Source: Alkalilimnicola ehrlichii MLHE-1 (lineage in GTDB: Bacteria > Pseudomonadota > Gammaproteobacteria > Nitrococcales > Halorhodospiraceae). From it: DNA of 32,000 nt. Location: contig NC_008340.1 of assembly GCF_000014785.1 (NCBI RefSeq), forward strand, positions 270,001 to 302,000. Reading direction: 5' to 3'. Positions 1 to 9,395 of the stretch are shown piece by piece (positions within the stretch are counted from its first letter, which is position 1; every line of letters starts with the position of its first letter). A model generated the notes under the pieces. That model was not told the DNA's origin, did not search any database, and saw only the letters and a program-made list of their open reading frames with translations. The translations under genes and the position numbers were made by a program.

Positions 1-135
1 CCCGCTGCAAGCCCGGTAGCGCGCGGTGTCCAGGTCGCCGACCAGGTTGGCCAGTTGCCGGAGAAAATGGCGGTTATCGTCCACCAGGCTGACGGTGACG
101 GGATGACCGTTCCTACATGCTTGTTGATACCCCAT
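1..135 (-). CDS. Partial CDS, N-terminal 45 codons only (runs off the left edge); possibly a response-regulator receiver domain
   Basis: ATG at 135-133 with AAGGA about 8 nt upstream. The frame is open to nt 1 and reads MGYQQACRNGHPVTVSLVDDNRHFLRQLANLVGDLDTARYRACSG. The VSLVDDN start is receiver-like, but the fragment is too short to be sure. Confidence 0.3.
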   Translation of the reverse strand, partial: MGYQQACRNGHPVTVSLVDDNRHFLRQLANLVGDLDTARYRACSG

Positions 136-283: not shown

Positions 284-595
284 TCAGTAGCCGCCCTCAC
301 CCTCGGCCTCGCCTTCCGCTTCTCCTTCGGCCTCACCTTCCGCCTCACCTTCCGCTTCGCCCTCGGCCTCGGCCTCCGCCTCACCGGCGGCTTCCGCCTC
401 GCCGACCGCGGCCTCGGCTTCGCCCTCGCCCTCCGCGGCGGCCATCATCTGATAGCCGCTATCGGCCACCGCGTCCGACATGACGGCGTGAATGCCGGCG
501 CCACCGCCGACAATCGCCAGAACGGGGACGGTGTAGGCGACACTGCGCGACAAGGTGCGCAGCAGTTGCTGACGGACTGTCTTTTCCTCACTCAT
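284..595 (-). CDS. Small (103 aa) single-TM protein with an acidic Gly/Ala/Glu repeat tail ending ...EGEAEGEGGY
   Basis: ATG at 595-593 is preceded by AGGAGG 4-5 nt upstream, the strongest SD seen in the window. The N-terminus is MSEEKTVRQQLLRTLSRS, followed by the hydrophobic segment VAYTVPVLAIVGGGAGIHAV and then about 50 aa of A/E/G repeats. Stop TGA at 286-284. The ORF-track start at 610 has no SD. Confidence 0.65.
   Translation of the reverse strand: MSEEKTVRQQLLRTLSRSVAYTVPVLAIVGGGAGIHAVMSDAVADSGYQMMAAAEGEGEAEAAVGEAEAAGEAEAEAEGEAEGEAEGEAEGEAEGEAEGEGGY
287..442 (-). repeat. In-frame 12-nt periodic coding repeat (GEAE tetrapeptide units)
   Basis: Repeated ggcctc(g/a)ccttccgc(t/c)tc units are visible on the plus strand. 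On the minus strand they translate as AAAEGEGEAEAAVGEAEAAGEAEAEAEGEAEGEAEGEAEGEAEGEAEGEGGY. Confidence 0.85.
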
Positions 596-694
596 ATTGC
601 CTCCTGTCACTCGGTTGCGGACCCACCCGCATTTTCGAAGATCATGACGACCTTCCTGGGTTCAGAATGACCCGGGAGTCCCCCGGGGAAGGGA

Positions 695-1120
695 TCACGC
701 ATCGTTTCCTTTTGCTAACAAGTAAAGGGCCACGAATAGCAGGCTGACCTGGAACATCATGCCGCCCATCGGGTGGGTCGCCGTTGGCAGAAAGTGCCAC
801 TGGCCCCAATGCGCCATGAAAATAGCGCCCAGAAGGACCGGCACGGTGGCCAGCGCACCCAGCCGCGTCACCCAGCCGTTGGTGAAGGCACCTACAACCA
901 CCAGGATGCCGGCGCTGATCTCCGCCAGCGCCACCAGCAGTGCGATGACCAGGGGGAGACCCATCATCTCCGCCCAGGGGCCGATGCCCGCGCCCAGGAA
1001 TTTGTCGACACCCATGTAGGTGAAGACAGAGAAGATCACCGCCCGGAGTAACCAATGGGCATGGCGCTCCACCGTCTGCAGTTCTGTGTTGGCCGTCGAA
1101 ATTCCGGTTGTCATAAGCAT
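695..1120 (-). CDS. doxX: DoxX family inner-membrane protein
   Basis: Internal ATG at 1120 (MLMTTG...). The protein has four hydrophobic segments and a DoxX-like pattern (HWLLRAVIFSVFTYMGVDKF ... LVALAEISAGILVVVGAFT ... LLGAIFMAHWGQ). The upstream part of the 210-aa ORF crosses a REP-like element and reads as non-coding. Confidence 0.75.
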   Translation of the reverse strand: MLMTTGISTANTELQTVERHAHWLLRAVIFSVFTYMGVDKFLGAGIGPWAEMMGLPLVIALLVALAEISAGILVVVGAFTNGWVTRLGALATVPVLLGAIFMAHWGQWHFLPTATHPMGGMMFQVSLLFVALYLLAKGNDA

Positions 1121-1170
1121 CTGTTGCCACCCTCTGTTGTTGGCTAAGAAAACGCTGAAGGGCCGCCTTT

Positions 1171-1248
1171 CGTCATTGCGATTGCCGCGACGTGTTGCCC
1201 GTAGTGGGGCGAATGGATTGCTTCGTCGCTTCGCTCCTCGCAATGACG
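1171..1248 (-). repeat. Solo REP-like palindromic element, a divergent relative of the arrays at 4.2, 9.6 and 25.8 kb
   Basis: Perfect 11-bp terminal inverted repeat: cgtcattgcga (1171-1181) and tcgcaatgacg (1238-1248). The reverse-complemented interior, gcgaggagcgaagcgacgaagcaatcc, aligns with gcgaggaggcgaagccgacgcggcagtc of the main family. Confidence 0.8.
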
Positions 1249-1349
1249 AGGTGTGGGAGCCCTTAACGTCCGATCCTTGATGCCTACAATAGAGGTGTGG
1301 GTCAGCGCCCGGTATCCGTAATAACACGCACTGCCGGGTGCACGGTTAA

Positions 1350-3839
1350 CTAGTTCGCTACTTTCTCCTTCCTCCCTTCCGGGTTGATCTCGCGCAGAAC
1401 GTCGTTCGCCGCACGGAGGGCGAGGTAGAGGTCGTCCCGATGCCCCACTGCGTAGACGGGTCGACCGGCCACCCAGTCGGCAAACTGTGACAGCGTTCGG
1501 CCATCCAGCCCGGTACCATCGTGGCGGGCCGTCTCCGGCAGCAGGTGGCCCAAGGCCTCGCGCAGGCCCAGCTGGCGGGCGATGCCCTGATCCCCGCTCG
1601 CGTCGTCGGGGGCGGCAATAAGGATCGCGGCCACCTCAACGGCATCGCGCGCCGGCGTGCCGGTCGCCGGCACCAGGTGGCCACGCTGGCCGAACCACCA
1701 AAGATGGGCAGTGGCGTCCGGCCCGTCGGGCTTTTCACCGGGCCGTGGGGTTGGCGCCGGCGTCGATGATCGTGGCTGGCGGAGCGGCAGCCCGAGGGAG
1801 CGGGCCCGGCCGCTGCCTTCCAGCGCAATGGCCGCGCCGCCGCTGGCGGTCTGGCCGTTCTCCCGGGCCAGGGCGAGGGCCAGGGCATCATCGCCGGTTG
1901 TATCGCCGCGGCAGACCAGCAGGGCGGCACCGGGATGGGACGGGCCGGCCGGGACCAGGGCGCCGGTGATCGCAATCTCCCCGACGTCGGGGGTGCGCCG
2001 CAACAGCGTCCGGACAAGCCAGGGGCCCAGCTCCGCAAGCCGCAGGTGCTCGGCGTCCACCTCACCGGCGATCAGCACGGTGTAGCCACGGCGCGAGCGG
2101 GCGATGTCCACCTCCAAGGCCTCCGCACCCGGTTCCGGCACAGCCAGCGGGGCCAGCAGCGGAAACAGCCGCCTTGCCGCCGGCTCGCTCCAAGTGCGCA
2201 GGTGCAATGCCTGCTGCCCGAGCCGCAGTGCCATGGCGTGGGGGGCATCGGCGGTGCGGGGTGCCGCGGCGCCAGAGGCGGAGGCTACGCCGTCCGCGGG
2301 TGTCTCGCAGGGCGCACCATCCGGGCATTGCACCAGCAGCCCCGCCTCGGCCCAGTCCGCCAGGGCCTCCCACACCTGTTGCTGTAGGGTGTTCGGGTCC
2401 GCGCCCTGCAGGGTCTGGTGCAATGCCGCGACGATCTCGTCCGGGCGCTTACCCATGGTGGCGTGCAGCCAGATGAGCGCGGCGGTGGGGTTGGTGGCGT
2501 AGAGCGCCTGGCGGGCCTCGCCGTAGAGGAGCAGTTCATCCCCGGAGATCACCTCCGCGACCTGCCAACGCTGCAGGGTGGGCCGGGCAACCGGTTGGGT
2601 GCTCAGGCCGTCGGCCAGCGCCACATCGGCGAAGCGGGGCAGCGGGAAACAGGAGAGGTAATGCGCCGCATCCGCGGCCGGCAGTATGCGCTGAAAGCCG
2701 CCGGCGTGGCGCGCCTCCCGCTCGGCCGCCGCGCGCCACTGGCCCACCGGGTCGTCGCCGGCGCCCTCGGCGGTGGGTTTCGGGTCGTTGAGGCCGGTCA
2801 TGGTTACCACGTCGGTCACCAGCCGGCGCTTGATGGCCGCCTCGATGTCGCCGCCATCCTCCGGCGCGGCGCACACGCCCAGCGACGGGCTGAGGTTGCA
2901 TTCCAGCAGCCAGGGCCGGATCCGGTCATCCACCAGGCAGTCCATGCCGATCAGCTCGTAGCAGCCCGCCTGATCCGCACCATGGTGCTGCAACTGGGCC
3001 CGCAGGTTCTCCCGTGCCGCGATCGTGGTCAGGGCCACAATGTCGCGCAACCGGTCGAACAGCGCCTCATCGTCGTGGCCCTGCTCGCGCAGCCAGTGGC
3101 GGTAACGCTGCAGGTCCACGAACACCACCGGGTCGTCGGCGGCCTCATTGAGCGCGTTGACGTCGGGGTTGGTGAGGTGGACGTAGGGGTTGTCGGCATC
3201 CTCCAGGCTGTAGGGCATGGAGGCGAGCTTGGCGAACCCCTGCTCATAGAGGTAGACCCGCAGCGGCTCCACCGAGGTGATCAGCACATAGAGGCGCAGG
3301 ACGTACTTGCGCTGGTTCATCAGGTGCGGCCGGCTGAGGTATTCCTGCACCATCCAGCGCTCGCCAGTGGGTACCTCGGCGACGTCCGAGACCAGCGAGA
3401 TGTCCTTGCCCCGTGCGGCGTTCTTGGGCTTGAGCAGCCAGCGCTTGTCGGGATGGGCGGCGGCGTGGGCCTGCAGGGCGTGGTAGTCGCCCGGCATGCT
3501 GAAGACCTGGGGCACGAAATCGGCCCGCGCCAGGTCCGGGTGCCCGGCGGGACGGCTGGCCACCAGGCGGCGCTGCAGGGCGTGCACGGTCTGGTAGAGG
3601 CGGCTTTTGACCGTCAGGCAGTTGTTGCCGGGGATGTGGTTGACGGTACGCCCGGGGCCGGTCTGCCGGAAGACCTCTTTGGGCGGCATGCCGGTGTACC
3701 AGCAGGCATCCCAGTGCTCGGCGTCCCCGGGTTGCCACAGGGCCGGGTCGAGCGCCTGCTCGAAAAAAATATCCTGCTCACGTTTACGCTTGCCGCCCAG
3801 CCAGAAACGGCGGGGTGCTGGGTTGGCGGATTCGGTCAT
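1350..3839 (-). CDS. 829-aa multidomain protein: N-terminal tubulin-tyrosine-ligase-family ATP-grasp domain, central PqqD-like (RRE) domain, C-terminal HprK-related kinase-like domain
   Basis: ATG at 3839 with GGGGGA 5 nt upstream. TTL motifs: WLLKPKNAARGKDISLV, MVQEYLSRPHL, RKYVLRLYVLITSVEPLRVYLYEQGFAKLA, HLTNPDVN, YELIGMDCLVDDRIRPWLLECNLSPSLG. The PqqD-like stretch is aa 421-505 (LYATNPTAALIWLHATMGKRPDEIVAALHQ...VWEALADWAEAGLLV). The C-terminal 290 aa resemble HprK-related kinases, but the P-loop position reads GDTTGDDA. Confidence 0.8.
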   Translation of the reverse strand: MTESANPAPRRFWLGGKRKREQDIFFEQALDPALWQPGDAEHWDACWYTGMPPKEVFRQTGPGRTVNHIPGNNCLTVKSRLYQTVHALQRRLVASRPAGHPDLARADFVPQVFSMPGDYHALQAHAAAHPDKRWLLKPKNAARGKDISLVSDVAEVPTGERWMVQEYLSRPHLMNQRKYVLRLYVLITSVEPLRVYLYEQGFAKLASMPYSLEDADNPYVHLTNPDVNALNEAADDPVVFVDLQRYRHWLREQGHDDEALFDRLRDIVALTTIAARENLRAQLQHHGADQAGCYELIGMDCLVDDRIRPWLLECNLSPSLGVCAAPEDGGDIEAAIKRRLVTDVVTMTGLNDPKPTAEGAGDDPVGQWRAAAEREARHAGGFQRILPAADAAHYLSCFPLPRFADVALADGLSTQPVARPTLQRWQVAEVISGDELLLYGEARQALYATNPTAALIWLHATMGKRPDEIVAALHQTLQGADPNTLQQQVWEALADWAEAGLLVQCPDGAPCETPADGVASASGAAAPRTADAPHAMALRLGQQALHLRTWSEPAARRLFPLLAPLAVPEPGAEALEVDIARSRRGYTVLIAGEVDAEHLRLAELGPWLVRTLLRRTPDVGEIAITGALVPAGPSHPGAALLVCRGDTTGDDALALALARENGQTASGGAAIALEGSGRARSLGLPLRQPRSSTPAPTPRPGEKPDGPDATAHLWWFGQRGHLVPATGTPARDAVEVAAILIAAPDDASGDQGIARQLGLREALGHLLPETARHDGTGLDGRTLSQFADWVAGRPVYAVGHRDDLYLALRAANDVLREINPEGRKEKVAN

Positions 3840-4055: not shown

Positions 4056-4131
4056 TGGTGGGTCGTGTAGGACTCGAACCTACGACCAGCGGGTTAAAAG
4101 CCCGATGCTCTACCAGCTGAGCTAACGACCC
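4056..4131 (-). tRNA. tRNA-Lys (anticodon UUU)
   Basis: The reverse complement is GGGTCGTTAGCTCAGCTGGTAGAGCATCGGGCTTTTAACCCGCTGGTCGTAGGTTCGAGTCCTACACGACCCACCA. It is 76 nt with anticodon loop CTTTTAA, a GGTTCGAGTCC T-arm and an encoded CCA. It is nearly identical in layout to E. coli tRNA-Lys. Confidence 0.95.
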
Positions 4132-4207
4132 AAATGAGGGCGCAAATTCTAGCCGAAGCCGGTGGCCTTGGCAATCCTGGGTGTGCTGCCCGCCCCCACC
4201 GCCCCCA

Positions 4208-4437
4208 CCGTCACTGCGAGGAGGCGAAGCCGACGCGGCAGTCTACCGCCCTGGATCGCCACGGCGCTGCGCGCCTCGCGATGACGGGGGAAAGGCCTTC
4301 GGCCCTCGCGATGATGGCCACTCCCCCGTCACTGCGAGGAGGCGAAGCCGACGCGGCAGTCTACCGCTCTGGATCGCCGCGGCGCTGCGCGCCTCGCGAT
4401 GACGGGTGAAAGCCTTCGGCCCTCGCGATGACGAGGG
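4208..4437 (+). repeat. REP-like array A: two 80-bp palindromic units (4208-4287, 4326-4405), each followed by a short half-unit
   Basis: The unit is ccgtcactgcgaggaggcgaagccgacgcggcagtctaccgc(c/t)ctggatcgcc(a/g)cggcgctgcgcgcctcgcgatgacgg. Its ends are imperfect inverted repeats (ccgtcaCTgcgagg versus the reverse complement of cctcgcGAtgacgg). The half-units read aaagccttcggccctcgcgatga(t/c)g. Confidence 0.9.
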
Positions 4438-4466: not shown

Positions 4467-5285
4467 TCACAGGCCGCGTTCGCGCATCAGCTCCAGGCGT
4501 TGCTCGGCCAGGCTGGCGGCGGTGGTGCCGCGGTGTTCGTTACGGGTGGCCTGAAGCAGCTCCCGGGCCTCGTCGTAGCGCTCCTGCTCGAAGCGGACGA
4601 AGCCGAGCTTGAGCTTGGCGTCGGCAGCCTTGTTGCTGTCCGGGTGGTCCGCCAGCAGCCGCTCGAACTCCTCGCCGGCGCGGTCGAACTCACGCTCGGC
4701 GTACCAGGTCTCGGCCAACCAGTAGCGTGCGTTGGCGCTGAACTCACCGTCCGGGTGATCGTCCAGTAGCGCCTCGAAGGCCTGACCGGCACGGCGGAAC
4801 CGCCCCTCGGTGATCAGCTGGAAGGCGGCCTGATAGCGGTCGGCCTCACTGCGGGCATCGGTGTCCGCCGGCGTGGTGGGGGTCTCATCCTCGATATCGG
4901 GCACCGGCACCGCTGCGGTGTCGGGGTCGTCATCGTGCGCCGGGTCCAGGTCCGGCACCGGGATCGCGGTATCGGCGGGCGGGGCCGGCGCCGGGGCGCC
5001 GCGGGCCAGCTCCTGCAGGCGCTCGTCCAGATCCAGGTAGTGGTCCTGCTGGCGCTCGCGGAGCTGGCGCACCTCACGGCTCAGTTCCTCCACCTGCCCG
5101 CGCAGTTCGCGGTTCTCCTGTTTGAGCCGCTCCAGGTCGTTCGCCATGTTGATCAGGGTGGAGCTCTCCAGTCGGCGCTCCAGCCGTTCCACCCGGTCTT
5201 CCAGGGCCTGGGCCTGCAGCGGGACGGCGGCCGCCAGGGCCGCCGCCACGCACATGCCCATCAGCCGTTTGCCGGCCTTCTGCAT
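4467..5285 (-). CDS. cpoB: Tol-Pal system protein CpoB/YbgF (coiled coil plus TPR)
   Basis: Start MQKAGKRLMG at 5285 with GGGAG 6 nt upstream. It has a signal peptide, a coiled-coil region (LERRLESSTLINMANDLERLKQENRELRGQVEEL) and a C-terminal TPR region (YQAAFQLITEGRFRRAGQAFEALL...ANARYWLAETWY). It is the last gene of the tol-pal cluster. Confidence 0.85.
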   Translation of the reverse strand: MQKAGKRLMGMCVAAALAAAVPLQAQALEDRVERLERRLESSTLINMANDLERLKQENRELRGQVEELSREVRQLRERQQDHYLDLDERLQELARGAPAPAPPADTAIPVPDLDPAHDDDPDTAAVPVPDIEDETPTTPADTDARSEADRYQAAFQLITEGRFRRAGQAFEALLDDHPDGEFSANARYWLAETWYAEREFDRAGEEFERLLADHPDSNKAADAKLKLGFVRFEQERYDEARELLQATRNEHRGTTAASLAEQRLELMRERGL

Positions 5286-5299
5286 GTGGGACTCCCGTC

Positions 5300-5854
5300 T
5301 CATTGACGATAGATGAGCTCGGCGCGCCGGTTCTGCTGCCAGGCCTCTTCATTGGAGCCCAGGGCGACCGGGTTTTCCTCGCCGTAGCTGGTGACCTCGA
5401 GTTGGTCCTCGTCGACCCCGTTGAGCACCATGATGCGCTTGACCGCCTCGGCGCGGCGCTCACCCAGGGCCAGGTTGTACTCGCGGCTGCCCCGCTCGTC
5501 GGTGTGGCCTTCGATGGTCATGCGCCGGTCCGGGTGACCGCTGAGGAAGCGGGCGTGGGCCTCGATGACCGGCATGTCCTCATTGCGGATCTCACTGCGG
5601 TCGAAGTCGAAGTACACGGTCTGGCGCGAGAGCGGCCCCTCGGGGTCATCCATCAGCGCGCTGATGAAGGGGTCGGAGGGGTCGAGACCGCGGGCGCGGG
5701 CCTCTTCCAGGCGCTGTTCACTCCAGTCCTCGTCGGCCATCCGCTCGCGGTCGCTGACCCGGCGGTCGTCGGTCTCCACGTCGGTGACGGTGGCGCAGGC
5801 GGCCAGGAACAGACCGGCGATAGCCAGGGCAATCCAGTTTTGCAGTTGCTTCAT
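5300..5854 (-). CDS. pal: Peptidoglycan-associated lipoprotein Pal (OmpA-like domain)
   Basis: Lipobox GLFLAAC. The OmpA-like C-terminus reads TIEGHTDERGSREYNLALGERRAEAVKRIM...NRRAELIY. It sits between tolB and cpoB. Confidence 0.95.
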   Translation of the reverse strand: MKQLQNWIALAIAGLFLAACATVTDVETDDRRVSDRERMADEDWSEQRLEEARARGLDPSDPFISALMDDPEGPLSRQTVYFDFDRSEIRNEDMPVIEAHARFLSGHPDRRMTIEGHTDERGSREYNLALGERRAEAVKRIMVLNGVDEDQLEVTSYGEENPVALGSNEEAWQQNRRAELIYRQ

Positions 5855-5918
5855 GTCATACTCCCTTACTTGAACGTCCTTGGTTCATGGTGAAGTGCCT
5901 GGTTCGGAGCGAATCCGG

Positions 5919-7226
5919 TTACCAGGCGGGTTCGCGGGTCAATCCGCCGGCGCGGGGCAAGGCCTGGTTGGCCCGGCCGTGCACGGAGACCGTGCGCAGC
6001 CTGGAGTCGCCGCTGCCACCGGCAGAGTACATGATCATATCGCCGTTGGGGGCGAATACGGGCGACTCATCCCACGGGCCGTCGGTGAGCACCCGGGTGC
6101 GGTCGCTCTCCAGATCGTGCACGGCGATGCGGAAGCTGCCGTTGTGCCGGTGCACCATGGCGATCCGCCGGCCGTCGGGGGACCAATTGGGCCGGGCGTT
6201 GTAGTCCCCGTCGAAGGTCACCCGTTCCACCCCGCCCGGGCCGTTCACCGCCAGGGTGTAGACCTGCGGCCGTCCGCCGCGGTCGGAGGTGAAGGCGATC
6301 CGCTCCCCGTCGGGTGAGAAAGTCGGCTCGGTGTCGATGGCCCAGTGGTCGGTCAGCCGGCGGACATGACCGTCGTCCAGCCGCAGCAGGTAGATGTTGG
6401 CACGCCCGTCCCGGGAGAGGGTGACGGCCAGGTGTCGCCCGTCCGGTGACCAGGCGGGGGCGCTGTTAATGCCGCGGAAGCTGGCGATCCGGTCGCGCTG
6501 GCCACTGCGCAGATTCTGGACGTAGATCTCGGAGCGACCGCCCTCGAAGGAGACGTAGGCCAAGCGGTCGCGCTCTGGCGACCAGGCCGGTGACATGATC
6601 GGCTGGCGCGACTCGAGGATCTCCCGCGGGCGCTGGCCGTCGGCATCGGCCACCATCAGCCGGTGGATGCGTTGGTCGTTGCGCTCTTCCACCTGGACAT
6701 AGGCGATCTGGGTGCCGAACACCCCGGGCAGACCCACTACCTCCTCGAAGACGATGTCGCTGATGGCGTGGGCCAGGCTGCGCAGGTTGTCCGGGTGCAG
6801 GCGGTAGCGCCGGCCCTCGATGCGGTTGCCGCGGAAGACGTCCAGCAGCTCGAAGGTGACCGAGACCCGGTGGCCGTCCATCTCCATCCGCCCGGTAACC
6901 AGGTAGTCCATGCCCAGGGCGCGCCAAGCCGAGAAGCGGGTGTCGTCCAGGCCGGCGGGGCGGGCCACCAGCTCCTCCCGGGGCAGGACCTCGAAGCGGC
7001 CGCTGCGCGCCAGGTTGTCGCTGATCACCCGGGCGATGTCCTGATCGGGGGTGGGAATTTCGCCGGTGACCGCAAAGGGGATGACGGCCACGGGCATGGC
7101 GCCCTCCTGGCCACCGATCACGTCGATGATGTCGTCGGCGTGGGCGGCCTGCAGCCCCACCAGCAGGAGGGCCAGGGTGCAAACGGTCTGGTAAAGGCGG
7201 CGCATGGCGTTACCTGTGCTGATCAT
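5919..7226 (-). CDS. tolB: Tol-Pal system beta-propeller protein TolB
   Basis: Signal peptide MRRLYQTVCTLALLLVGLQAAHA. Repeated propeller motifs are present (PAWSPDG, PTFSPDG, PNWSPDG). The start at 7226 overlaps the tolA stop as ATGA; an alternative start is at 7205. Confidence 0.9.
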   Translation of the reverse strand: MISTGNAMRRLYQTVCTLALLLVGLQAAHADDIIDVIGGQEGAMPVAVIPFAVTGEIPTPDQDIARVISDNLARSGRFEVLPREELVARPAGLDDTRFSAWRALGMDYLVTGRMEMDGHRVSVTFELLDVFRGNRIEGRRYRLHPDNLRSLAHAISDIVFEEVVGLPGVFGTQIAYVQVEERNDQRIHRLMVADADGQRPREILESRQPIMSPAWSPERDRLAYVSFEGGRSEIYVQNLRSGQRDRIASFRGINSAPAWSPDGRHLAVTLSRDGRANIYLLRLDDGHVRRLTDHWAIDTEPTFSPDGERIAFTSDRGGRPQVYTLAVNGPGGVERVTFDGDYNARPNWSPDGRRIAMVHRHNGSFRIAVHDLESDRTRVLTDGPWDESPVFAPNGDMIMYSAGGSGDSRLRTVSVHGRANQALPRAGGLTREPAW

Positions 7227-8224
7227 CGGTCCGGCGCGAAGCGGTAGGTGCGTTCGCGCAGCTCTCGGTTGGCGTCGTCGTCATCGGGCATGGGCAGCGG
7301 CGCGGCGCGGTAAGCGGCCCGGACCACCGAGGCGTCAAAGGCGTCGTTGCCGCTGCCGCGGGTGATGGTCACCTCCTGCACGTCGCCGTGGCGGGACAGG
7401 CGGATGCGCACCAGGGCCTCCAGGCCGGCCGGGGTGCCGCTGGGGCGAACCCAGGCGCGGCGCAGCTCGGCGCTGATCCGGCCGGCGTAACTGCCCACCG
7501 TCTGTTGCACCTCGCGGGCGCGGCGCTCGGCCTCGATGGCCTCCTGGCGGGCGCGCTCCTCGGCCTGGCGCTGGCGCTCCAGCTCCTCCTGCCGGCGGCG
7601 TTCTTCCTCCTGACGCTGCCGTTCTGCCTCTTCCTGGCGCCGACGTTCTTCCTCCTGGCGCTGACGCTCCAGCTCTTCCTGGCGCCGGCGCTCTTCCTCC
7701 TGGCGCTGACGTTCTTCCTCTTCCTGACGCCGCCGTTCTTCCTCCTGGCGCCGGCGTTCCTCTTCCTCCTGGCGCCGCTGTTCCTCCTCGCGGCGCAGTC
7801 GCTCGGCCTCTTCCTGCTGGCGGCGCTCCTCTTCGCGCCGGGCCTGCTCCTCGGCCTCGCGCCGCGCCTGTTCGGCCTCCTCGCGCCGCTGCTGTTCCAG
7901 CCGCTCCTGCTCGCGGCGCTCCGCCTCCCGCCGGCGTTGTTCCTCCTCCTGGCGCCGGCGTTCCTCCTCGGCCTGACGGCGGGCCTCTTCCTCGGCGGCC
8001 TCGCGCTCGCGGATGGGGGCCATGGCCACCTCTTCATCCACCGCGAACGCCTCGATAATCTCGCCGTCGCCGGCATGCTCCTCGGTGGCCTGGGGCAGCA
8101 GCGAGACATTGGCGAAAAAGAGCCCGAAGATGAGTACGTGCAGCAGGATCGAGGCCGCAACGTAACGGCCCGGCCGGACCGGGGGTGTCTGTCGCGCCCC
8201 CTTGGGCCGCTCAGGAGGCGTCAT
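7223..8224 (-). CDS. tolA: TolA with a greatly expanded Glu/Arg/Gln helical domain II
   Basis: N-terminal TM segment YVAASILLHVLIFGLFFANV, about 170 aa of EERRRQEE-type repeats, and a TolA-like C-terminal domain (GRISAELRRAWVRP...GNDAFDASVVRAAYRAAPLP). It lies between tolR and tolB. Confidence 0.9.
   Translation of the reverse strand: MTPPERPKGARQTPPVRPGRYVAASILLHVLIFGLFFANVSLLPQATEEHAGDGEIIEAFAVDEEVAMAPIREREAAEEEARRQAEEERRRQEEEQRRREAERREQERLEQQRREEAEQARREAEEQARREEERRQQEEAERLRREEEQRRQEEEERRRQEEERRRQEEEERQRQEEERRRQEELERQRQEEERRRQEEAERQRQEEERRRQEELERQRQAEERARQEAIEAERRAREVQQTVGSYAGRISAELRRAWVRPSGTPAGLEALVRIRLSRHGDVQEVTITRGSGNDAFDASVVRAAYRAAPLPMPDDDDANRELRERTYRFAPDR
7505..8011 (-). repeat. Charged coding repeat region inside tolA
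   Basis: Reiterated cctcctggcgc(c/t)g(a/g)cg(c/t)tc-type units encode QEEEERRRQEEERRRQEEEERQRQEEERRRQEELERQRQ and similar. Confidence 0.8.
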
Positions 8225-8225
8225 G

Positions 8226-8675
8226 TCAGCCCTCGCCGTCCGGCCTGCGGGTCATCAGCCCGACACCCGCCGCCCCGGCATCGCGTAGCCGCACCATCAC
8301 CGATACCACGTCGCCGTAGGGCACGTTGCTGTCGCCGTTGACCAGCACCCGCTTGTCGGGGCTGTCCGTCAATATGGCCATGACCGCACGGGAAAGTTCA
8401 CCCCTGTCCAGCGGTGCTTCCGGATCGTCGGCCATGTTCAGGTAGTAGCGACCGTCGGCATCCACCGAAACGATCAGCGGCTCCTGGGGCGGGTCCTGCT
8501 CGGCCTGGGCGTCCACCTGGGGCAGGTCCACGTCCACGCCCTGGTAGAGCAGCGGTGCGGTGACCATGAAGATGACCAGCAGCACCAGCATGACGTCGAT
8601 GTAGGGGACCACGTTGATCTCCGACATCGGCCGTCGCCGGGTACGGTGGCCCTGGGGGTTGGCGGAATAGGGCAC
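8226..8675 (-). CDS. tolR: TolR (ExbD/TolR family)
   Basis: RTRRRPMSEINVVPYIDVMLVLLVIFMVTAPLL matches the E. coli TolR N-terminus pattern (SEINIVPLLDVLLVLLLIFM). It lies between tolQ and tolA. Confidence 0.92.
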   Translation of the reverse strand: MPYSANPQGHRTRRRPMSEINVVPYIDVMLVLLVIFMVTAPLLYQGVDVDLPQVDAQAEQDPPQEPLIVSVDADGRYYLNMADDPEAPLDRGELSRAVMAILTDSPDKRVLVNGDSNVPYGDVVSVMVRLRDAGAAGVGLMTRRPDGEG

Positions 8676-8687
8676 GGCGCGACCTCC

Positions 8688-9395
8688 TCAGTGGCCTGCC
8701 TGGCCGGCGGCGAATTCCGTGGGCCCATGGGTGTTGCGTTGCAGGATGCTGGTGAACTCCTCCACGAAGGTCTCGTAGCGGTTGATCAGCCGTTCCACCT
8801 GGTTGGCGTACTGGTTGTAGGCGATGACCGCCGGAATGGCCGCAAACAGCCCCAGCGCGGTGGCGATAAGGGCCTCGGCGATGCCCGGGGCCACGGTGGC
8901 GAGGGTGGCCTGCTGCATCTCACCCAGGGCGCGGAAGCTGTTCATGATGCCCCAGACGGTACCGAACAGACCCACATAGGGGCTCACCGACCCGACGGTG
9001 GCCAGGAAGGGGAGGTGGCGTTCCAAGTCGTCCATCTCCCGGGAGAGGGAAACCCGCATGGCCCGGTGCGAGGCCTCCACCATGGTACCGGGGGCGGTGC
9101 CCGTCTGCTTGCGCATCCGGGTGAACTCCTTGAACCCGGAGCGGAAGATCCGCTCCAGCCCGCCGTGATCCGGGTGGGGCTCGCGGATCTGGCGGTAGAT
9201 CTCGGCCAGATTACCGCCGGACCAGAAACGCTCCTCGAAGTGCACCGCCCCGTCGTGGGCCTTGCGGATGGTGGCGCGCTTGAGAAAAATCAGCGCCCAG
9301 GAGCTGACCGAGGCCAGCACCAGAATCAGCATGACCAGCTGCACCAGCAGGCTGGCCTCGAGAACAAGATGAGTGATGGATAATTCGCCCGACAT
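8688..9395 (-). CDS. tolQ: TolQ (MotA/TolQ/ExbB proton channel)
   Basis: Three TM segments. Conserved motifs include LATVGSVSPYVGLFGTVWGIM and TLATVAPGIAEALIATALGLFAAIPAVIAYN. It is the first gene of the operon. Confidence 0.92.
   Translation of the reverse strand: MSGELSITHLVLEASLLVQLVMLILVLASVSSWALIFLKRATIRKAHDGAVHFEERFWSGGNLAEIYRQIREPHPDHGGLERIFRSGFKEFTRMRKQTGTAPGTMVEASHRAMRVSLSREMDDLERHLPFLATVGSVSPYVGLFGTVWGIMNSFRALGEMQQATLATVAPGIAEALIATALGLFAAIPAVIAYNQYANQVERLINRYETFVEEFTSILQRNTHGPTEFAAGQAGH

Follow-up and report, generated by a model that had tools for sequence, protein, structure and literature searches.

The ligation of amino acids by eukaryotic tubulin tyrosine ligase-like (TTLL) enzymes is known, and so is the tailoring of leader-bearing precursors by enzymes guided by a RiPP recognition element (RRE; RiPP, a peptide made by the ribosome and modified after translation). 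Here we describe a bacterial locus that combines features of both, found in a window of 32,000 nt (the whole stretch of DNA that was analyzed) from Alkalilimnicola ehrlichii MLHE-1. The locus encodes an 829-aa enzyme, made of a TTLL-like ligase domain, a PqqD-type RRE and an HprK-like domain, and a 103-aa partner protein that carries a conserved leader and (GEAE)n repeats. To judge from our literature search, joining the two would be new, as would this class of substrates and the occurrence in bacteria.

The closest described enzymes are the eukaryotic TTLL glutamylases, with which the present enzyme shares the Pfam family, a match between its family profile and TTLL6 at 1e-57, the fold (TM(target) 0.81), the motif GGFxRLxP and the Arg/hydrophobic signature of initiases. 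The partners are likewise disordered repeats rich in Glu, Gly and Ala. TTLL5 glutamylates the Glu-Gly repeats of RPGR (PMC13052805), and as in that pair, the enzyme would be brought to its long repeat by way of a separate docking element. Unlike the eukaryotic TTLLs, the present enzyme is bacterial, and its docking would use the fused RRE and a leader instead of microtubule-binding or cofactor-interaction domains. It also has a Phe where TTLL6 has K283, its partners appear to be exported, and it is known here from its sequence.

The pairing of an RRE with an HprK-like kinase is known from paeninodin-type lasso peptide clusters and from linear polyphosphorylated peptides (LPPs) (PMC13381572). 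NCBIfam further lists a PqqD/HprK-related-kinase-A system under the name 'HPr-rel-A'. As for likeness to these systems, the C-terminal half of the enzyme is homologous to ~400-aa proteins with a PqqD domain and a TIGR04352-like domain; the partners carry the [Y]xxPx[L/M] leader of lasso and LPP precursors, and their ORFs (open reading frames) of about 65-300 aa overlap in length with LPP precursors of 35-200 aa. The present enzyme differs in that its kinase domain has lost Walker A and a TTLL-type ligase serves as its catalytic module.

Bufferins, which are RiPPs, carry Sec signal peptides and have an RRE-like partner, and their DoxX is dispensable (PMC11626156). Bufferins and the HvfA-type periplasmic RiPPs (MNIO with an RRE-like DUF2063 partner and DoxX) resemble the present locus in their long precursors with a Sec signal, here a putative one, on which cytoplasmic modification would precede export, in an RRE-like module and in an optional DoxX. 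The chemistry differs, since bufferin Cys is converted to thiooxazole by MNIO whereas ATP-grasp ligation would act here on repeats without Cys, and the DoxX of the window resembles that of bufferins at the family level only. RimK, finally, also represents bacterial ATP-grasp ligases that extend an acidic tail with Glu, as it does in the poly-alpha-glutamylation of ribosomal protein S6 (RpsF), but it lies outside the TTL family and has no RRE. Its target is a cytoplasmic protein, modified at the C-terminal alpha-carboxylate and, unlike the partners here, without a leader.

Earlier comparative work considered the ATP-grasp domains of the TTL family to be probably of bacterial origin (PMC3495828). 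In our literature search, neither a TTL-family enzyme from bacteria that carries an RRE nor the (GEAE)n partners were found described, in agreement with a first reading of the DNA from its letters alone (the sequence-only reading), which knew of no such bacterial system; a check of a 2025 survey of RREs likewise turned up no mention of a TTL-RRE enzyme or of the repeat proteins.

A TTLL-type ligase domain fused to an RRE and an HprK-like domain

The enzyme is 100% identical to the A. ehrlichii MLHE-1 protein P0001 (P- and L-style numbers label the comparison proteins and loci of the analysis), which NCBI names 'PqqD family peptide modification chaperone'. Database names across the family, this one as well as 'amylase' and 'TTLL5', are uninformative or wrong. 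Pfam TTL (PF03133) matches aa 64-345 at E=7.7e-56, with 190 bits against a cut-off of 20.1, over profile positions 9-280 of 292. When a family profile of 66 sequences was searched against PDB sequences, TTLL6 was matched at 1.8e-57, TTLL7 at 2e-53, TTLL11 at 7e-26, entry 5vlq, which we take to be the glycylase TTLL3, at 2e-16, and TTL itself at about 1e-12. An AlphaFold2 model of the whole enzyme (pLDDT 86.5, pTM 0.82) again had TTLL6 structures as its best Foldseek matches (E=1.4e-27, TM(target) 0.81), and the extended-TTL motif GGFxRLxP, common to TTLL6 and TTLL7 after the core, is present near aa 380-387. The enzyme therefore falls outside TTL proper, to which the sequence-only reading had likened it: TTL trails TTLL6, with about 1e-12 against 1e-57, the pocket has F240 and K337, the C-terminal residue of the partners is variable, and an Arg/Leu signature (see below) is that of initiases forming side-chain isopeptide bonds.

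The TTLL6 residues K125, K174, T263/N264 and the D...ExN triad correspond to K78, K137, T223/N224, D300 and E313/N315 of the enzyme, all of them invariant in the 66 family sequences; their roles in nucleotide, phosphate and Mg binding were described for TTLL6 (10.1101/2020.06.07.139295). The invariance of these ATP-, Mg- and phosphate-binding equivalents suggests a ligase domain that looks active, and the domain is also the most conserved part of the enzyme.

The RRE is matched by Pfam PqqD (PF05402) at aa 438-502, with 31.6 bits against a cut-off of 23.4, and the model shows its winged helix, in which a beta-sheet, its strands falling within aa 421-448, is followed by three helices, at 451-461, 466-476 and 482-498. 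The last third of the protein had no direct match in Pfam or NCBIfam scans. A separate AlphaFold2 model of aa 530-829 (pLDDT 90.4) matched ATP-PEPCK in Foldseek at E=2.5e-4 with a probability of 1.0, and HprK weakly (E=0.34); ATP-PEPCK and HPr kinase belong to one fold class. We also searched aa 400-829 with phmmer against 1.84 billion representative proteins and found, besides the family of ~800 aa, many proteins of ~390-410 aa aligned over nearly the whole query, with aa 430-800 linked to proteins of about 400 aa at E 1e-10 to 1e-4. These shorter relatives have Pfam PqqD above threshold, and their matches to TIGR04352 ('HprK-related kinase A'), with E-values of 1e-21 to 1e-35, stay under the trusted cut-off of that model. 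The last third is thus homologous to HprK-related kinase A by transitive homology and by its PEPCK/HprK-like fold, and the fusion of TTL, RRE and HprK-like domains that the sequence-only reading had recognized is confirmed, the first two domains by Pfam and the third in this indirect way.

An active kinase domain is not supported, since Walker A has been lost. The motif G.SG.GK[ST] is kept in 7 of 9 stand-alone ~400-aa relatives in an alignment and is absent from all five TTL-fused family members checked and from the window protein, which reads 'CRGDTTGDDALALALARENG' instead. Having lost Walker A, the HprK-derived domain would not be a kinase and is predicted to be catalytically dead. It was probably inherited together with the RRE from a peptide-modifying enzyme of the RRE-kinase type and probably serves as a scaffold or substrate-binding module.

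Stand-alone fusions of ~400 aa that join PqqD (RRE) to HprK-related kinase A with an intact Walker A (P0144, P0148, P0152, P0162, P0166, P0169 and others) form a family that seems itself to be uncharacterized. By homology, it is the apparent source of the C-terminal half of the enzyme.

Leader-bearing repeat proteins beside the enzyme gene

A scan of one genome per species gave 231 loci with relatives of the enzyme, of which 80 were kept with their flanks (1.27 Mb, with 12,181 ORFs of at least 35 aa searched). The sampled gammaproteobacteria were Marinobacter, Halomonas and allied genera, Ectothiorhodospiraceae including Aquisalimonas and Natronospira, and Halopseudomonas, and the alphaproteobacteria include Robiginitomaculum, Parvularculaceae, Marinicaulis and Geminicoccaceae. 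A partner hidden Markov model (HMM) was iterated from the first 51 residues of the small protein. This leader HMM matched 116 ORFs in 79 of the 80 loci, 106 of them within 2.5 kb of the enzyme gene, and at the single locus without a match the enzyme lies 938 bp from the contig end. The 103-aa protein of the window was matched at E=5e-19. Partner repeats are masked or N-filled at L009 11008-11409 and L076 7260-7763, and because of such masking in draft assemblies the repeat number and the partner counts are lower bounds.

The link between enzyme and acidic protein had been drawn from proximity in one genome. Comparison of homologous neighborhoods supports it, with leader-bearing (GEAE)n proteins flanking the enzyme gene in 79/80 loci, and it holds under different gene orders: enzyme, type 1, DinB-like, type 2 in Marinobacter; (type 2), enzyme, type 1, DinB-like in Halomonas; and a divergent pair of type 2 and enzyme only in alphaproteobacteria, where type 2 is the sole partner. 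We consider it very probable that the enzyme and the leader-(GEAE)n proteins are a functional pair.

The partners fall into two classes. Type-1 proteins, typically of ~90-115 aa and in essence free acidic tails, have the conserved N-terminus, a short linker often with GYxM, and Glu/Ala/Gly repeats up to the C-terminus, so that their last 40 residues are 40% E, 25% G and 21% A. In the window, the type-1 ORF has an AGGAGG box a few bases upstream of its ATG, and its product ends in ...GEAEGEAEGEAEGEAEGEGGY, with the pattern (GEAE)n-GEGGY; a 12-nt unit, repeated in tandem in 7.6 copies at 295-385, codes for this acidic tail. The terminal residue of type-1 partners varies: among 62 complete proteins, G ends 39, A 10, Y 4, S 3, N 3, Q 2 and E 1, and the G[GS]Y ending occurs only in the subclade that contains DoxX. 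Type-2 proteins, of ~190-290 aa, begin with a type-1-like N-terminus and repeats and continue into a domain of ~110 aa with CxxCH, which is Pfam SoxA-TsdA_cyt-c above the gathering score; against PDB sequences, a type-2 protein gave weak matches to diheme peroxidase, SoxA and MauG around CxxCH. The repeats of type 2 are internal, and the C-termini are non-acidic.

What the two classes have in common at the N-terminus is conserved far beyond usual signal peptides. The consensus of the 116 proteins is (K/R)xxLLxKL(S/A)R(G/N)x-x-Y-(T/S)-x-P-x-(L/M), or RxxLLxKLSRGxxYxxPxL in its simpler form, with P in 100%, L in 97/95/90%, R/K in 98% and Y in 71% of the sequences, and the window protein reads Y21-T-V-P24-V-L26...G30. 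Discrete lasso-type RREs bind [Y/W]xxPx[L/V/I/F/A] and tolerate swaps of the Tyr to other hydrophobic residues (PMC13381572, PMC12710340). In the partners the Tyr is present in 65/69 type-1 leaders and in 14/18 type-2 leaders where type 2 is the sole partner, while 23/29 type-2 leaders of loci that also have type 1 carry Val or Ile at this position. This Tyr/Val pattern fits recognition by the RRE. The earlier proposal that the RRE docks on the N-terminal part of the small protein fits as well, and a lasso-type YxxPxL motif (Y21-P24-L26) would be its contact there.

The loci are not lasso peptide clusters. A lasso cyclase, the leader peptidase B2, a nucleotidyltransferase and a dedicated ABC exporter are absent from the conserved core of the 80 loci, and the residue after YxxPxLxxxGx5 in the window protein is not Thr, the residue that lasso precursors have at the penultimate leader position.

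The same segment is laid out like a signal peptide. Its n-region has a net charge of +2 in the window protein and of +2 to +5 across partners, its h-region is moderately hydrophobic (Kyte-Doolittle 15-mer of 1.86 in the window protein and 1.4-2.0 across partners), and AxA-like sites such as 'SAEA|AQ' lie ahead of the repeats. The c-type heme domain (CxxCH) of type 2 implies export. Together, the RRE motif, this signal-like layout and the cytochrome domain of type 2 suggest a double role, and we read the N-terminal segment as a probable leader that doubles as, or overlaps with, a Sec signal. The membrane anchor that the sequence-only reading had seen in the 103-aa protein is, with a hydrophobicity of 1.86, better taken as this leader or signal peptide.

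Some repeats contain further residues. His recurs at regular positions in the repeats of alphaproteobacteria and of some gammaproteobacteria ('GEAEHHAKGEAEHAKGEAE', 'AEAGHAEAE'), and Lys is present in those of Marinobacter ('GEAKGEAEG'); examples are L049 6974-7822, L056 6968-7723, L021 2759-3463 and L024 10860-11186. The His and Lys are hints of metal binding or of alternative nucleophiles within the repeat.

Proposed side-chain ligation and its alternatives

The acceptor and linkage were approached through the residues that set regiochemistry in TTLL6. Its C179/Q180/H362 align with A142/R143/L316 of the enzyme, which is the initiase state. A142 and R143 sit in a KPxNAARGKG loop, the R143 position being Arg in at least 90% of sequences and Lys otherwise, and L316, within ECNLSPS, is invariant. 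An Arg at the Q180 position marks isopeptide initiases across TTLL glutamylases and glycylases, alpha-linking TTLLs carry Gln there, and the mutations C179A/Q180R/H362I turn TTLL6 into an initiase (bioRxiv 10.1101/2020.06.07.139295). The enzyme thus has both marks of a TTLL initiase, the Arg at the Q180 position and an uncharged residue at the H362 position, and the family profile scores the engineered initiase mutant above wild-type TTLL6 (198.7 vs 191.8 bits). A reading of the enzyme as an elongase, with TTLL6 Q180 located in 'MICQLY', was discarded, as the wild-type and mutant PDB sequences place Q180 in the KPDSGCQGRG loop. The internal repeats of type 2, the variable C-terminus, the likeness to glutamylases and the initiase residues together suggest that the most likely acceptor would be the gamma-carboxylate of an internal repeat Glu.

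We propose that the leader guides the ligation of an amino acid to side chains of Glu and that this precedes export, a reading to which we give a probability of roughly 60%. Within the cytoplasm, the PqqD-type RRE of the enzyme would capture a freshly synthesized partner by its leader, and the TTLL domain would use ATP to activate gamma-carboxylates of the repeat Glu residues as acyl-phosphates. An amino acid, with glutamate as the leading candidate donor, would then be ligated onto the activated Glu to give short isopeptide branches; long branches are hard to reconcile with passage through SecY (PMC11626156), which favors short ones. The modified protein would be released to the Sec pathway and its leader/signal removed. 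Type 1 would thereby end as a periplasmic tail that is highly anionic, and type 2 as a cytochrome c with an anionic tether. In halo-alkaliphiles, the system would perhaps build a polyanionic periplasmic layer or tether.

Several observations weigh against this proposal. In TTLL glutamylases, K283 and K377 (TTLL6 numbering) bind the donor Glu at its gamma-carboxylate and R241 binds it at its alpha-carboxylate (10.1101/2020.06.07.139295). R241 and K377 correspond in the HMM alignment to K204 and K337, both invariant, but the glutamylase-invariant K283 aligns with an equally invariant F240 in an ungapped stretch. With only K337 of the Lys pair kept, the donor may not be Glu, and we hold glutamate as donor tentatively, at somewhat less than even odds. 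The RRE matches the lasso B1 proteins TfuB1 and TbiB1 weakly when the family profile is compared with the PDB (E=0.04-0.08), the counts behind the Tyr/Val pattern are phylogenetically non-independent, and the conservation of the N-terminus could partly come from paralogue descent or from dedicated targeting instead of RRE binding. Branched or bulky side chains would be expected to pass SecY poorly (PMC11626156). Co-transcription of the window genes is uncertain, given a 229-bp spacer with a REP-like (repetitive extragenic palindromic) element and a weak hairpin between enzyme and doxX, and the DinB-like partner found in 54/80 loci is without a place in the model yet.

Ligation at the end of the main chain, either a TTL-like tyrosination or an alpha-linked addition of Glu as by RimK or TTLL11, would account for type-1 tails that finish within the repeat itself and for the G[GS]Y ending of the window protein and four relatives, and RimK, TTL and TTLL11 are precedents for ligation to an alpha-carboxylate. 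It is nonetheless unlikely. The sequence-only reading had centered its chemistry on the C-terminal Tyr, which is terminal in only 4/62 complete short partners, Gly (39) and Ala (10) being the common ends, and chain-end chemistry of any kind conflicts with type 2, whose repeats are internal, upstream of a cytochrome c domain with a non-acidic C-terminus, in what is the sole partner of alphaproteobacteria. The enzyme, moreover, has Arg where alpha-linking TTLLs have Gln at the Q180 position, matches TTL much more weakly than TTLL6/7, and its donor pocket lacks the Glu/Tyr pair reported for TTL in the TTLL6 paper. Cross-linking is another kind of side-chain chemistry to be considered. Graspetide/microviridin ATP-grasp enzymes, acting on leader-bearing precursors, make side-chain cross-links, and an activated Glu could here be attacked by a nucleophile in the substrate (Lys in GEAKGEAE, for example) or on another macromolecule (such as an envelope amine), giving lactam cross-links or covalent anchoring. 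This RiPP precedent, the Lys of Marinobacter repeats and a donor pocket that differs from glutamylases at F240 speak for it, but Lys, Ser and Thr are all missing from the repeat in many partners, the window protein among them, the enzyme is a member of the TTL family and not of the graspetide ATP-grasp families, and K204 and K337, which correspond to residues holding a free amino acid donor, are invariant, so that we find cross-linking quite unlikely as well.

That the acidic proteins are co-regulated envelope proteins, with the ligase acting on itself, on a small molecule or on a free poly-amino-acid, is decidedly improbable. Proximity by itself is no proof of a substrate, the spacer and hairpins part the window genes, and RimK makes free poly-Glu in vitro; yet the adjacency is near-universal over alpha- and gammaproteobacteria despite varying gene order, the fused RRE is met by an RRE-type motif in the partners, and the acceptors known for the closest relatives of the enzyme are repeats rich in Glu. 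Only a very slight chance is left to the function that the NCBI name implies, a chaperone that holds the signal-like leader as the Tat proofreading chaperones (REMPs, redox enzyme maturation proteins) do, with both enzyme-like domains inactive. The HprK-like domain is demonstrably dead and the RRE may bind a signal-peptide-like segment, but no other part of the protein is as conserved as the TTL domain, in which all nucleotide-, Mg- and donor-binding equivalents are invariant over the 66 sequences.

If leader-guided side-chain ligation is correct, bacteria would for the first time be seen to carry out protein side-chain ligation of the TTLL type, and a TTL-family ATP-grasp domain joined to an RRE would make up a new class of RiPP-like enzymes. 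Segments that resemble a Sec signal and act as a modification leader as well would gain a further example. The system occurs in salt- and soda-lake bacteria and points to an undescribed protein modification, which could give halophilic and alkaliphilic proteobacteria a strongly anionic layer, or a cytochrome tether, on the outer face of the cytoplasmic membrane. Culturable carriers include Marinobacter nauticus and several Halomonas species.

A wider and more doubtful reading would see here a bacterial counterpart of the 'tubulin code' writers, in which a TTLL4/5/6/7-type ligase uses a RiPP-style leader to place branches of Glu or another residue on exported repeats, including a cytochrome tether. 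As the family occurs in alpha- and gammaproteobacteria and has the extended-TTL motif, it could be the bacterial stock of the eukaryotic tubulin glutamylases, with repeat proteins as the ancestral target; we think this speculative and less than likely. Should the side-chain ligation itself hold, the old question of where those glutamylases came from, and of their pre-tubulin targets, would become directly testable.

Locus layout, accessory genes and other features of the window

The enzyme, partner and DoxX features of the window are all on the minus strand (Table 1). The outer limits of 284-3839 given by the sequence-only reading are exact, and its descriptions of the three genes (ORFs 3839-1350, 1120-695 and 595-284) are right. 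In A. ehrlichii the full cluster runs enzyme, DoxX, type 1, DinB-like, a membrane FMN (flavin mononucleotide) 'Glu_synthase' protein and type 2. It continues past position 1 of the window, with the DinB-like gene from 135 and then type 2, located 2.5 kb past the edge, so the window covers only half of it; for the genes beyond the edge we used the gene table and translation of the genome locus, L081.

Table 1. Coordinates of the enzyme, its partner and neighboring features in the window.
Feature	Position (nt)	Strand	Remark
tRNA-Lys(UUU)	4056-4131	-	promoter-like site upstream
Strong terminator-like hairpin and T-run after tRNA-Lys	4008-3988		
Three-domain enzyme, 829 aa	1350..3839	-	TTLL-like ligase, RRE and HprK-like domain, the last predicted to be dead
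TTLL-type ATP-grasp ligase domain	2655..3839	-	about aa 1-395
PqqD-type RRE	2325..2588	-	about aa 418-505
HprK-related-kinase-A-like domain	1353..2240	-	about aa 534-829; without P-loop (predicted pseudokinase)
REP-like element	1215..1261		in the enzyme-doxX spacer
DoxX-family membrane protein, 141 aa	695..1120	-	lineage-specific accessory
Type-1 partner, putative substrate, 103 aa	284..595	-	leader/signal region and (GEAE)n tail
Conserved N-terminal leader/signal region	479..595	-	aa 1-39; Y21-x-x-P24-x-L26...G30
Acidic Glu/Ala/Gly repeat region	287..433	-	aa 55-103; 21 Glu; proposed modification target
DinB-like gene, 5' end only	1..135	-	193 aa in the genome; crosses the window edge

DoxX, the DinB-like protein and the membrane FMN 'glutamate-synthase-like' protein are proposed to be accessory. 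The window DoxX scores 35.2 bits in Pfam against a cut-off of 23.6 and is 139 aa long by the NCBI start, two codons later; an NCBIfam match to HvfX is faint (E=0.04). Its orthologues, with 55-66% identity, adjoin the short partner in only 13/80 loci, which does not support DoxX as a core component of the system. DinB-like genes are a commoner partner, present in the 54 loci mentioned above and on the strand of the enzyme in 52. The A. ehrlichii DinB-like protein (Pfam DinB_2, 27.4 bits) received no informative name in an NCBIfam scan; one guess is a hydrolase that reverses the modification. The ORF that runs off the start of the window had also been considered as a response regulator, which was ruled out, as the genome table and Pfam give DinB-like.

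The membrane-anchored FMN protein inside the A. ehrlichii cluster (PF01645, E=7e-86) is encoded at L081 14322-15983, and its gene is found in 10/80 loci, including some of Marinobacter (for example L005 3005-4651 and L006 6158-7900); a link to donor supply is possible. Other recurring neighbors are an ECF (extracytoplasmic function) sigma factor in 33 loci, a zf-HC2 anti-sigma factor in 18 and a secreted rhodanese-like protein in 36. They lie about 4 kb downstream of the enzyme in Marinobacter and Halomonas (for example L075 12497-13537 and L047 8261-8521), and upstream in Halomonas-type loci such as L080 6851-8209. Together with DoxX, the DinB-like protein and the SoxA/TsdA-type cytochrome, the sigma factor and rhodanese suggest a context of envelope stress or of sulfur/thiol redox.

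As to the elements said to separate the window genes, the REP-like piece in the enzyme-doxX gap is there, and doxX and the small gene have between them a short inverted repeat, CCCGGG...CCCGGG, read directly from the sequence; an inverted-repeat scan of 596-1349 at seed 9 reported nothing. The weak hairpin noted above lies 3' of the enzyme gene. The REP-like piece, of ~45 nt, is related (79-89%) to a 118-nt element that stands in two tandem copies, 96% alike, at 4205-4412 between cpoB/ybgF and tRNA-Lys. From its sequence, the 118-nt element looks like a REP-type interspersed palindromic element of the A. ehrlichii genome.

Directly upstream of tRNA-Lys, and sharing its strand, the window has a complete tolQ-tolR-tolA-tolB-pal-cpoB cluster at 4467-9395 (L081 4445-9373). 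A genomic island at tRNA-Lys was considered and dropped: GC content is uniform at 0.65-0.73 over 22 kb, which gives no sign that the TTLL cluster was inserted at the tRNA, and the contexts of the cluster differ in other genera. A 20-nt palindrome at 229-260 (85% complementary), which closely follows the stop codon of the small gene and precedes the DinB-like gene, may be an attenuator or a hairpin that stabilizes the transcript.

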